Origin: Octopus sinensis
Lineage: Eukaryota
Reading direction: 5' to 3'
Assembly (NCBI RefSeq): GCF_006345805.1
Contig: NW_021834237.1
Span: 6,150 to 70,149 of the forward strand
Length of the DNA stretch: 64,000 bases
Positions within the stretch are counted from its first letter, which is position 1. Each line of letters starts with the position of its first letter. A model generated the notes under the pieces. It was given only the letters and a program-made list of their open reading frames with translations. It was not told the origin of the DNA and searched no databases. Both the position numbers and the translations under genes were made by a program. Positions 6,173-56,245 of this stretch are shown one piece after another.

Positions 6173-6325
6173 TGTGTGGTAAGTAGCTTGCTTACGAACC
6201 GCATGGTTCCGGGTTCAGTCCCACTGCATGGCACCTTGGGCAAGTGTCTTCTACTATAGCCTCGGGCCGACCAAAGCCTTGTGAGTAGATTTGGTAGACG
6301 GAAACTGAAAGAAGCCTGTCGTAAT

Positions 6326-6412
<87 letters not shown>

Positions 6413-6637
6413 TTGTGTGTTTGTGTGTCTGTGTTTGTCTCCCTAGCATTGCTTGACAACCGATGCTGGTGTCTTTATGTCCCCGTCACTTAGCGGTTCG
6501 GCAAAAGAGACCGATAGAATAAGTACTAGGCTTACAAAGAATAAGTCCCGGGGTCGAGTTGCTCGATTAAAAGGCGTTGCTCCAGCATGGCCGCAGTCAA
6601 ATGACTGAAACAAGTAAAAGAGTAAAAGAGAGAGTAA
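6173..6637 (+). mobile_element. SINE family A, near full-length
   Basis: Head, expanded (TA)n core, 3' half and gtaaaaga tail. Confidence 0.93.
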
Positions 6638-10720: not shown

Positions 10721-10966
10721 CAAAAATGTACATGGAAACTGATTTTGGAAGAGTAAATAAAACTGTGTTAGAATAAACGAAGCAGTCCTTGAAATTCATT
10801 CTATAAAACAACACCCCAATCGTCATATTGGCCCAACGGTATCGAAAACAAAAACAAATACAAATTTATCCACTTCGACACAGAATATTATTAAATGTCC
10901 ATCAACCAGAATTTTTTTTATGACGCCATCAATTTCGCCAGAAAAATAATTAATATCATACACATA

Positions 10967-11375
10967 GGCGCAGGAGTGGCTGTGTGGTAAGTAGCTTGCT
11001 AACCAACCACATGGTTCCGGGTTCAGTCCCACTGCGTGGCATCTTGGGCAAGTGTCTTCTGCTATAGCCCCGGACCGACCAATGCCTTGTGAGTGGATTT
11101 GGTAGACGGAAACTGAAAGAAGCCTGTCGTATATATGTATATATATATGTGTATGTGTGTGTTTGTGTGTCTGTGTTTGTCCCCCTAGCATTACTTGACA
11201 ACCGATGCTGGTGTGTTTACGTCCCCGTTACCTAGCGGTTCGGCAAAACAGATCGATAGAATAAGTACTGAGCTTACAAAGAATAAGTCCCGGGGTCGAT
11301 TTGCTCGACTAAAAGGCGGTGCTCCAGCATGGCCGCAGTCAAATGACTGAAACAAGTAAAAGAGAGTAAAAGAGA

Positions 11376-26264: not shown

Positions 26265-26671
26265 TCTCTCTTTTACTCTTTTACTCTTTTACTTGTTTCA
26301 GTCATTTGACTGCGGCCATGCTGGGGCACCGCCTTTAGTCGAGCAAATCGACCCCGGGACTTATTCGTTGTAAGTCCAGTACTTATTCTATCGGTCTCTT
26401 TTGCCGAACCGCTAAGTGATGGGGACGTAAACACACCAGCATCGGTTGTCAAGCAATGCTAGGGGGACAAACACAGACACACAAACATATACACACACAT
26501 ACATATACATATATACGACAGGCTTCTTTCAGTTTCCGTCTACCAAATCCACTCACAAGGCATTGGTCGGCCCGGGGCTATAGCAGAAGACACTTGCCCA
26601 AGATGCCACGCAGTGGGACTGAACCCAGAACCATGTGGTTTGTAGGCAAGCTACTTACCACACAGCCACTC
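26265..26671 (-). mobile_element. SINE family A, near full-length
   Basis: Reverse complement of the 39154 copy. Confidence 0.93.
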
Positions 26672-31029: not shown

Positions 31030-31505
31030 TATTTCTTACTTGTTTTTTAGTCTAGTGTTGTGAATGTGCGTAATTTTGTCGGAGAATCCATAAGTAAGAA
31101 GGTATTAGTTATAGTCAGGGGAGTGATTATTGAAAATGAATTTGTTTGTGGAAAGTTAGAAATTCGAATAGAAACATTGTTGACGACGCTATTTAAGACA
31201 GAGCTACGGTGTTTGGATACAACCTTAATATATTGGAGGCATGCATTAGTTTTTATTGTAGGAATAGTATAAAGCGGAGTTTAAGTTAAAGTAACGTCTA
31301 AAATGTTGGCTATTGTGAGGATATTTTTGAAAAGGTAGAAGGGTTATGCTTGTTAAAGAATTTACGGAGAGCTTTCCAGGTGCGTTCCAAACTCGACTTT
31401 GAATATCGAGTAGCTCTGAAAAGAGCGCCGTCCCTATAAAGACCTAGCCTAGGAAGATGTGTGCTAATTTGATATAAAAGAAAAAAGCCTACCGGTCGGT
31501 AACTT
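31030..31505 (-). mobile_element. Penelope-like element reverse transcriptase relic (Neptune-type motifs)
   Basis: LGLYRDG (cf. GLYRDDG), SLERTWKALRKFF, then frameshifted ILDVTL..YYSY..LQYIKVVSKH..VSIRISNF. Confidence 0.75.
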
Positions 31506-32054
31506 GAGCGAAACTGAAAGAAACCCATCGTATATATATATATGCGTGTGTGTCTGTGTTTGTCCCACCACATCACTTGACACCCGATGCTGGTGTTTTT
31601 TACGTTCCCGTAACTTAGCGGTTCGAAGAACCGATAGAATAAGTACTAGTCGATTTGTTCAACTATGGCTACAGTCAAATGACTGAAACAAGTGAAGGAA
31701 TGTGGCCATTCTGGAGCAACGCCTTTAGTTGAACAAATCGACTGGTACTTATTCTATCGGTTCTTCGAACCGCTAAGTTACGGGAACGTAAAACCACAGC
31801 ATCGGTTGTCAAGTGATGTGGGGGGACAAACACAGACACACACGCACATATATATACGATGGGTTTCTTTCAGTTTCGCTCAAGTCACCGACCGGTAGGC
31901 CTTTTTCTTTTATATCCAATTAGCACACATCTTCCTTTGCTAGGTCTTTATAGGGACGGCGCTCTTTTCAGAGCTACCCGATATTCAAAGTCGAGTTTGG
32001 AACGCACCTGGAAAGCTCTCCGTAAATTCTTTAACAAGCATAACCCTTCTACCT
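31333..32054. repeat. ~330-bp inverted repeat with 60-nt spacer (PLE plus SINE A fragment in each arm)
   Basis: 31333-31665 is the reverse complement of 31726-32054 with scattered mismatches. Confidence 0.95.
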
Positions 32055-39153: not shown

Positions 39154-39572
39154 GGCGCCGGAGTGGCTGTGTGGTAAGTAGCTTGCTAACCAGCCACATG
39201 GTTTCGGGTTCAGTCCCACTGCGTGGCATCTTGGGCAAGTGTCTTCTGCTATAGCCCCGGGCCGACCAATGCCGTGTGAGTGGATTTGGTAGACGGAAAC
39301 TGAAAGAAGCCTGTCGTATATATGTATATATGTATATATGTGTGTGTATGTGTGTTTGTGTGTCTGTGTTTGCCCCCCTAGCATTGCTTGACAACCGATG
39401 CTGGTGTGTTTACGTCCCCGTCACTTAGCGGTTCGGCAAAAGAGACCGATAGAATAAGTACTGGGCTTACAAAGAATAAGTCCCGGGGTCTATTTGCTCG
39501 ATTAAAGGCGGTGCTCCAGCATGGCCGCAGTCAAATGACTGAAACAAGTAAAAGAGTAAAAGAGTAAAAGAG
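39154..39572 (+). mobile_element. SINE family A, full-length
   Basis: Complete head, core and (gtaaaaga)3 tail. Confidence 0.95.
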
Positions 39573-39669
39573 AATGCTCCTAAAGTTACAGGAGAAAAAG
39601 CGTTAGTAGGAACTTTGTAATGCTTAATAAGCGGCTTTGTGGTATTTAGCTACATCTTTTTGCATTGTC

Positions 39670-41018: not shown

Positions 41019-41123
41019 CATTCTAGCCATGACCATCCTGGTTTTATGCTTGCTTTTTCTGTTTGTTTGTTTTTTGCTAACAGAAAAAGCAAGCATAAAA
41101 CCAGGATGGTCATGGCTAGAATG
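41019..41123. repeat. Perfect 45-bp inverted repeat with 15-nt loop
   Basis: 41019-41063 is the exact reverse complement of 41079-41123. Confidence 0.95.
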
Positions 41124-48998: not shown

Positions 48999-49029
48999 CA
49001 TATACATACATATATATAAAAAAAAAATA

Positions 49030-49390
49030 TATAACCTACTTGGAAGTGGATGCGTGGCGTTCGATCATATAATAACAAATTAATAAATAAAACATATGCA
49101 TACATACATACATATATGTATATACCTACATCTATATGTATATATATACATGCATATATGGGTACAGGACACCAAAAAAAAACGTAGAACACAACGAGAA
49201 ACGAAAACATAAAAACAAAATCATGGAAACGGACTTTTTCAAACAACGAAAAAACAGAGTACAAGACATACAACACAAGGAACATTCCCCTTCTTCAGCT
49301 GCCCCTGCTTCGACTACTCCGTGTTTCGAAGGTAAGGGCAAGACACGACTTCATTGAAATAATCCTTCCCGCTAAGCAAATTAAATAAAA
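49030..49390 (-). mobile_element. Permuted-hammerhead repeat family copy
   Basis: Homologous to 37435 and 55951; 3' end ccaagtaggtt next to a TA-rich tract. Confidence 0.8.
49287..49347 (-). ncRNA. Candidate non-circularly permuted hammerhead ribozyme
   Basis: cgtg-TC-ttgccctt-a-ccttc-GAAA-cacg-(13 nt)-aggggcag-CTGAAGA-a-gggg. Confidence 0.68.
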
Positions 49391-55675: not shown

Positions 55676-55910
55676 CTCTTTTACTCTTTTATTTGTTTCA
55701 GTCATTTGACTGCGGCCATGCTGAGCACCGCCTTTAGTCGAGCAAATCGACCCCGGGACTTATTCTTTGTAAGCCCAGTACTAATTCTATCGATCTATTT
55801 GCCGAACCGCTAAGTGACGGGGACGTAAACACACACCAGCATCAGTTGTCAAGCAATGCTAGAGGGACAAACACAGACACACAAGCATATACACACACAT
55901 ACATACAATA
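55676..55910 (-). mobile_element. SINE family A, 3' half
   Basis: Stops at the internal microsatellite, where the next element begins. Confidence 0.9.
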
Positions 55911-55950
55911 CATATATATATATATATATTATATATATATATATATATAT

Positions 55951-56245
55951 AAACTTACTTGGAGGAGATGAACGAAACGAATCGAATCGACGCGAGGGCG
56001 CTCCAGTCATACAATAGTGTAATAATAAAATTATGCATCATTCAGACATGACATATATGTACGTATAACTACATTAAATGTGATATACATGCATATATAA
56101 AATTATATACGTGGTCAGGTTACACCACAAAAAATAGGCCAAGTCAAAACAAACATGGAAAAAGGACCCCTTCATCAGCTGTCCCTAGTCAACTCCAGCG
56201 TGTTTCGAAGGTGAGGACAGAACACGACTCGTCGAAGTAGCCCTT
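55951..56245 (-). mobile_element. Permuted-hammerhead repeat family copy
   Basis: gcgccctcgcgtcgattcgattcg shared with 37690; abuts (TA)n. Confidence 0.8.
56167..56226 (-). ncRNA. Candidate non-circularly permuted hammerhead ribozyme
   Basis: cgtg-TT-ctgtcct-ca-ccttc-GAAA-cacg-(12 nt)-agggacag-CTGATGA-a-gggg. Confidence 0.68.

Follow-up and report, generated by a model that had tools for sequence, protein, structure and literature searches.

A truncated copy of a non-coding Penelope-like repeat, the intact units of which are predicted to form a scrambled hammerhead with a split core

The DNA analysed here is a 64,000-nucleotide stretch (hereafter ‘the window’), in which an earlier note had described two permuted hammerhead motifs near 49.3 kb and 56.2 kb. 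We believe, with a probability of roughly 0.7, that the 56.2-kb sequence belongs to a high-copy, non-coding Penelope-like repeat, of which it is a 5'-truncated and likely inactive copy, and that intact units of this repeat carry all of the hammerhead core bases in scrambled order within a predicted, likely self-cutting fold that places a four-way junction between A9 and G10.1. From 5' to 3', the first half of an intact unit's fold comprises a strand of helix P0, hairpin Pj, and strands of stem II, helix PX, stem III (with the UH cut site) and stem I; the second half comprises the stem II partner, GAAA, the partners of stem III, PX and stem I, CUGANGA and the P0 partner. This fold is well supported by comparison of related sequences, and catalysis is what we infer for it.

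The motif was searched for in a 2.72-Gb genome (G000), where each window copy has at least 40 near-identical relatives. The pattern CCTTCGAAA-N20..40-CTGANGAAGG gave 5,021 exact matches (2,485 + 2,536), and the reversed pattern gave none (0 + 0). More families, their stems differing in sequence, came to light with looser patterns (135 and 1,073 matches, with 5 and 12 for the controls), and a pattern in which the two bases after A9 were freed returned 319 matches (control, 31). Upstream arms are retained by 2,254 copies. Clustering of 249 distinct instances produced 17 families, corresponding to 15 groups of at least three copies and two singleton pools (of 5 and 4); one further three-copy group, its upstream part scrambled by truncation, was dropped, and other singletons and pairs were left out of the 17-family counts. 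Within the window, the pattern CGAAA-N18..40-CTGANGA matches the two copies only and is weak by itself (chance mean 0.47; two matches reached in 8 of 100 shuffles), while Rfam reported no ribozyme family anywhere in the 64 kb up to E = 1.

The core of the motif is that of a hammerhead: CUGANGA, GAAA and a UH cut site in which H is not G, surrounded at the family level by three covarying stems. Positions C3–A6, G8, A9, G12–A15.1 and U16.1 are invariant in 17 representatives, with the letters of CUGA.GA and GAAA having been fixed by the search patterns and U16.1 and H17 left free. H17 is C in 65, U in 58 and A in 44 of 167 copies, with no G among them. In copies that retain the 5' side, N7 is in most cases A or U. 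The blocks occur in the order S (cut site), G (GAAA), C (CUGANGA), which excludes hammerhead types I, II and III (circular order C, G, S).

Stems I and III covary across the 17 families, in agreement with the earlier suggestion that the source elements had been selected for a hammerhead-like fold, and we regard such selection as well supported by these comparisons. Two-sided changes were found at all six pairs of stem I and at four of the five pairs of stem III (17 real representatives), and in the 17 consensuses 84 of 85 stem I cells and 66 of 68 stem III cells are paired. In the count of compensatory changes among subfamily consensuses that the note had called for, stem I pair 4 is C-G in 9/17, U-A in 8/17 and a hybrid in none. 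Among individual copies (167 of 205 distinct copies that retain the 5' side, related rather than independent) the same pair is C-G in 99, U-A in 60, a hybrid in 6 and something else in 2; with six hybrids among 167 copies, the independent segregation of the two stem I substitutions that would have spoken against the note's proposal was not seen.

The units that carry this motif are non-coding and about 740 nt long (740–880 bp), with three of them spaced 737 nt apart at one locus (L007). Most copies are solo and truncated, and tandem units bear one hammerhead each. Their 3' ends are fixed: all 28 printed ends from 30 loci run into TATA, the other two continuing into a next unit. Their 5' ends are variable, and inverted pieces occur. 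Neither a reading frame in the CCUUC units, nor a shared one upstream, nor a coding partner for the CCUUC subfamilies was found, and no frame was found within 1.5 kb upstream of 20 copies of family F51. A GIY-YIG element considered as the coding partner was rejected, as it lies upstream at 2 of 397 loci and looks like a nested insertion. At two loci (L028 and L108) copies sit directly behind the 3' end of one GIY-YIG-bearing Penelope-type element (upstream 190–1360 nt), an arrangement that probably reflects a shared (TA)n target. At four others (L191, L203, L205 and L379) inverted duplications turn at, or close to, the palindrome UUCGAA within the predicted ribozyme, and at L282:1325-1500 a GGUGC-type copy is fused to the 3' part of F20 just after the F20 core, which could represent either a nested insertion or a template switch between families.

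We mapped 5' ends relative to the predicted cut in 30 copies that had been selected by their far 3' end only. Eight of them begin at −2 to +25, one at +26 to +100 and two at −60 to −3. The excess at −2 to +25 corresponds to 8.5 times the rate elsewhere (0.015 after correction for any 28-nt window); the starts are scattered across 25 nt, and a single copy falls exactly at +1. A second set of 30 copies, six loci of which are shared with the first, placed 10 near the cut, and a further subfamily placed 6 of 29 there by eye. The pile-up fits either an RNA pool cut at the site or a copying enzyme that stalls on the fold. In four of the 30 copies the sequence continues beyond the start of the unit and into the one before it, which is what multimeric or circular RNA would be expected to give; a second pile-up one unit upstream was not seen among the long copies, which are too few for one to appear. 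In 25 copies compared for decay after insertion, changed non-CpG positions number 2/249 in the core, 9/624 in the stems and 24/943 in the flank, the last figure including source-element variants. Part of the unit is also represented in contigs from four sequencing runs, presumed to be of RNA, in which no joints or ends are seen.

It is conceivable, if unlikely, that the fold is conserved and no longer catalytic, serving instead as a protein-binding or packaging structure for the element RNA, with the core bases kept for folding. A9 and G10.1 lack a covalent link, enzyme stalling would suffice for the pile-up of 5' ends, and one Penelope hammerhead is described as having needed protein for cutting and as being dispensable in vitro. 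Against such a structure stand the invariance of the core bases, including U16.1 that the search did not fix, and the avoidance of G at H17. Stalling is further at odds with the distribution of ends in the unbiased set, in which eight fall at −2 to +25 and none at +26 to +87, despite the presence of 3' helix strands in the latter range.

The strand that pairs with the bases preceding GAAA proved to lie elsewhere than was originally drawn. The true 5' strand of stem II is found 21–29 nt upstream of H17, where it is the best match in 16 of 17 consensuses. Across families stem II takes the forms GAAGG/CCUUC, GCACC/GGUGC, GACAC/GUGUC and GAGCA/UGUUC, and the bases after CUGANGA do not track the GGUGC, GUGUC or UGUUC strand. 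Upstream pairing accounts for 84 of 85 cells in the 17 consensuses (81 Watson-Crick, 3 G-U and 1 mismatch), as compared with 30 Watson-Crick, 33 G-U and 5 mismatches in 68 cells for the gggg/cuuc stem of the earlier note. The covariation score is 0.443 for the upstream strand (reached in 0 of 500 shuffles) and 0.268 for the downstream one (37 of 500); since the families share ancestry and the structure was derived from the very sequences compared, these and all other shuffle counts given here are not probabilities. Stems I, upstream II and III together have 91% of cells paired and two-sided changes at 13 of 16 pairs in the 17 representatives, in an alignment that misplaces the upstream part of the Naiad row, to the disadvantage of the fold. 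Their joint score is 0.606, versus at most 0.161 for slid controls, of which 35–44% of cells are paired.

The downstream pairing is the basis of an improbable alternative, by which the motif would be a plain type-SGC hammerhead as first drawn, running from A9 through a bulged base into GGGG/CUUC, and the upstream helices would form a second, regulatory fold. Type SGC is a validated natural fold, a viroid hammerhead accommodates a single additional A or U at the A9/G10.1 step, and every CCUUC subfamily, like both window copies, can form the pairs G-C, G-U, G-U and G-C; downstream stem II cells are 91% paired in alignment A1. Half of these pairs are G-U, however, and the helix is interrupted in the GGUGC families (at pair 2) and in the Naiad family (at pair 3). 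The invariant G behind the downstream pairing had been fixed by the search patterns before the freed-base search, and once subfamilies with other bases after A9 were included the score fell to 0.198 (144 of 500 shuffles).

A chance resemblance carried by the repeat, with common ancestry passing for covariation, would be in keeping with a tree in which the subfamilies are related and with isolated 76-nt fragments that fold no better than shuffles, but we consider it very improbable in view of the near-complete pairing of stems I, II and III across the consensuses, the several different sequences found for each helix and the poorly paired slid controls. Folding of single pieces of 76–146 nt gave no signal, and RNAalifold applied to alignment A1 recovered stem I alone.

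In intact units the GGGG that follows CUGAUGA pairs instead with an upstream CCCCU, forming helix P0, and the P0 strand, hairpin Pj and stem II strand follow one another from 5' to 3' with no gaps. The freed-base search identified a subfamily with CCGGG after A9 and CCCGG upstream, in which stem II is unchanged. Stem II is likewise unchanged in subfamilies with one to three extra bases after A9 (L381-L386, L367-L377 and L387-L392), one of which also has two additional bases before G10.1; as read from these variants, the predicted junction tolerates slack on both exchanging strands. Full-domain analysis relied on an alignment of 14 copies that omits F16, F19, F17, F32, F4 and F51, for which the locator failed, and that contains a substitute copy for F37. 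In these copies all five P0 pairs show two-sided changes, and P0, Pj and stem II together show them at 11 of 14 pairs (0 of 500 shuffles). P0 is 5–7 bp only and is the top partner in 14 of 21 consensuses; its per-family shuffle values, where it was found, range from 0.04 to 0.75, a weakness that reflects the shortness of the helix. For F16 and F19, P0 was located at its expected place in a rerun, and it is imperfect in the young Naiad family F51. An initial extension of the model, in which A9 was followed by a small hairpin and the closing helix was rich in G-U pairs, was abandoned once longer flanks revealed Watson-Crick P0 and Pj.

Helix PX is formed between what had been described as a freely diverging linker and the segment that follows the stem II strand, with two-sided changes at four of the five pairs counted, so the linker does not diverge freely. 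It directly adjoins the stem II strand at its start and the stem I strand at its end, and an internal loop separates it from stem III. Depending on the family, this loop resembles a kink-turn or a loop-E motif (AGUA/GAA). With these helices included the fold extends over about 130 nt, rather than the roughly 60 nt first assigned to it. The minimum-energy fold of an intact F20 unit consists of exactly P0, Pj, PX and III, leaving the pseudoknot strands free (z −2.0); P0 and Pj appear together in the minimum-energy folds of two of five full units, the other three gave different folds, and the z-scores are modest.

Two further sets of sequences have a similar appearance. An old family (L393-L396), which was not counted, has another P0 sequence that fits by eye, and its stem II seems to be disturbed at the base by a bulge or a mismatch. 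A different repeat (L128:4440-4560 on the forward strand, and also L129-L132) shows, by eye, the split-core wiring with fully Watson-Crick P0 and junction hairpin; in L128 the motif lies about 500 nt downstream of a reading frame to which Pfam has no match.

In the reading that we prefer, P0, Pj, PX and III would form a nested scaffold, and the closure of stems I and II would add two pseudoknots to it. With P0 stacked on Pj, and stem II on the core, the exchange of strands would unite A9 and G10.1. The RNA would excise itself by cutting from multimeric transcripts, and a Penelope-type (probably Naiad-like) enzyme would initiate copying at a fixed internal TA-rich site. Cut RNA would give rise to short copies, and uncut or re-joined RNA to longer or tandem ones. 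We also lean, if only by a little, toward a more far-reaching version of this reading, in which the fold would be a seventh natural hammerhead wiring that is active, with its catalytic strand broken between A9 and G10.1 and re-registered by the four-way junction. It would then be the ribozyme that Naiads reportedly lack and an end-shifted relative of the type CSG of nematode Naiads, and it would re-ligate itself to provide a circular template without a host ligase; about 20 bp would hold both cut products together, leading to re-ligation.

The comparisons with known systems that follow draw on the accessible parts of the cited sources. The block order S, G, C is that of type SGC, treated alongside types CSG and GCS by Eckert et al. 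2023 (PMC10085705); type SGC is described there from metatranscriptomes and not from genomes of known organisms. HRIMA-1 and its variants likewise contain all of the core bases, with cut-site block, GAAA and CUGANGA in that order, and likewise form stems I and II as pseudoknots; the linker between those stems is typically 3 nt in type SGC and 2–5 nt beyond its paired part here. Judged from the text of that source, PX may act much like the extra helix that in type SGC links stem I to stem II on their outer sides, in a different wiring. In the type-SGC scheme CUGANGA leads straight into stem II with at most 1–2 extra bases (PMC10085705), so that block C is unbroken. In the present family the stem II strand instead precedes the predicted cut by about 25 nt, and the gap from A9 to G10.1 is spanned by two additional helices. 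The split-core form is, on its predicted structure, distinct from type SGC, and was not found in print. Other hammerheads interrupted at this point are described as having one extra base between A9 and G10.1 (the CChMVd (+) hammerhead; PMC3705267) or an unpaired base before stem II (Penelope minimal hammerheads; PMC4209133), where the present fold has two helices and, at A9/G10.1, the RNA's own ends.

Two octopus Naiad consensuses in the literature (PMC8557442) have 3' ends to which family F51 of the searched genome is almost identical, a link that rests on the published consensus, and both of those 3' ends display the same strand order and the upstream stem II. Craig et al. 2021 (PMC8557442) flagged one of the two as ‘HHR_half_core’ and, in the parts of the paper available, reported no canonical hammerhead in Naiads. 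The repeats studied here resemble Naiads (PMC8557442) in their (TA)n insertion, fixed 3' ends, 5' truncation, partial tandems and inverted 5' pieces, and differ from them in that the CCUUC subfamilies have no reading frame, and hence no N-terminal GIY-YIG and reverse transcriptase of the kind that define the Naiad clade. In the supplement of PMC8557442, the three nematode consensuses preceding the headers Naiad-2_Nbra, Naiad-3_Nbra and Naiad_Hpol have 3' ends that read by eye as intact type-CSG hammerheads; their order (unbroken block C, cut site, GAAA) is cyclically the same as that seen here with the ends placed elsewhere, and type CSG has otherwise been described from two sequences of metagenomic origin.

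Metazoan non-LTR retrozymes (Cervera and de la Pena 2020, PMC7229834; Li et al., bioRxiv 10.64898/2026.07.22.740005) are also non-coding, high-copy elements with tandem or solo units that bear one hammerhead each, and have been proposed to be Penelope-derived. They have type I hammerheads and units of 150–450 bp, with demonstrated cleavage and circular RNA, whereas the units described here are of 740–880 bp and have another topology and a predicted cut site. It is mainly a protein ligase that circularizes retrozyme RNA (PMC7229834). For another Penelope element, internal initiation at AT-rich targets has been described, and hammerhead cleavage was unneeded for insertion in vitro (PMC11167929).

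The two window copies themselves (Table 1) both start inside the fold. From 56226 to 56167 on the reverse strand, the 56.2-kb copy reads letter for letter as transcribed in the earlier note, and cleavage would be expected between 56221 and 56220. The copy is 82–87% like the tandem unit, has an internal deletion of about 70 nt near 56131 and ends in (TA)n at about 55951. It holds the 3' part of the fold only: its first base is the second of the stem II strand, and where G10.1 should stand (56246) there is a foreign C that marks the insertion junction, so that pair 10.1-11.1 is C.C; hairpin Pj and the P0 5' strand are lost with G10.1. Helix PX bears two changes. The 49.3-kb copy begins at about 49390, within Pj; it retains the stem II 5' strand (49368-49364), and its P0 5' strand is gone. 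By their sequences both copies are likely inactive, and the 56.2-kb copy, which could in principle use the weak downstream stem II pairing, is a poor choice for a cleavage assay because it lacks G10.1, Pj and the P0 5' strand.

Table 1. Positions of the repeat copies in the window and of the predicted fold elements within the 56.2-kb copy
Feature	Positions	Strand	Remarks
Whole 56.2-kb copy	55951..56245	-	5'-truncated ~740-nt non-coding repeat, subfamily F20
AAGG, remnant of true stem II 5' strand	56242..56245	-	
Strut helix PX, 5' strand	56231..56240	-	one substitution vs subfamily
Stem III upstream strand	56221..56226	-	U16.1 = 56222, H17 = U56221
Stem I strand 3' of predicted cut site	56214..56220	-	pair 4 base = U56217
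Stem II 3' strand CCUUC	56207..56211	-	
Core GAAA and stem III downstream strand	56199..56206	-	G12 = 56206
Internal loop and PX 3' strand (the earlier ‘linker’)	56185..56198	-	1-nt deletion in 56.2-kb copy
Stem I partner strand	56179..56186	-	
Core CUGAUGA (C3-A9)	56172..56178	-	C3 = 56178
AGGGG, closing helix P0 3' strand in intact copies	56167..56171	-	upstream partner absent here
(TA)n run at element's 3' end	55905..55950	.	usual insertion context
Second window copy, subfamily F18	49027..49390	-	core 49298-49292, predicted cut 49342/49341

The letter changes reported between the 49.3-kb and 56.2-kb copies are all present: in stem I, pair 1 goes from U-G to C-G, pair 4 from C-G to U-A and the outermost pair (pair 8) is lost through a change from U-A to C.A; N7 goes from A to U and H17 from C to U; and stem III and CCUUC are identical. 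As judged from the subfamily sequences, these are subfamily differences inherited from the source elements, and they are silent on the function of either inserted copy. The 56.2-kb copy is a real, ordinary, truncated member of an unusual and probably functional family of predicted ribozymes, and matters only as a pointer to that family.

In the literature searched (including PMC3088659, PMC4209133, PMC3705267, PMC8370743 and the Eckert supplement, in their accessible parts, with most subscription papers outside the search), no hammerhead with helices between A9 and G10.1 was found. Within the same scope, with figures and bioRxiv supplements outside it, no scrambled hammerhead in an animal retroelement was found, and the accessible part of the supplement of PMC10085705 has no match to octopus, Naiad or these motifs. 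Hammerheads that are not circular permutations are known from environmental sequence, and their classification assumes an uninterrupted core strand. The thousands of copies and dozens of subfamilies in an animal genome would provide a natural counter-example, with compensatory variants ready to hand. Such a form would explain why descriptor searches miss ribozymes in Naiads, and the family would make a role of the hammerhead in Penelope-type transposition testable. An insertion point between A9 and G10.1 that accepts two helices might also provide a handle for ribozyme switches.

Several other features of the window were observed in passing. An abundant dispersed repeat at 55700-55880 adjoins the 56.2-kb copy and recurs throughout the window (for example at 751-1074, 6173-6571, 10958-11313, 26267-26671 and 39154-39573); it is presumably a SINE. 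A long, near-perfect hairpin at 41020-41122 has Rfam microRNA matches below threshold, and an inverted repeat at 31333-32054 has 234-nt arms that are 93% complementary and lie 254 nt apart.
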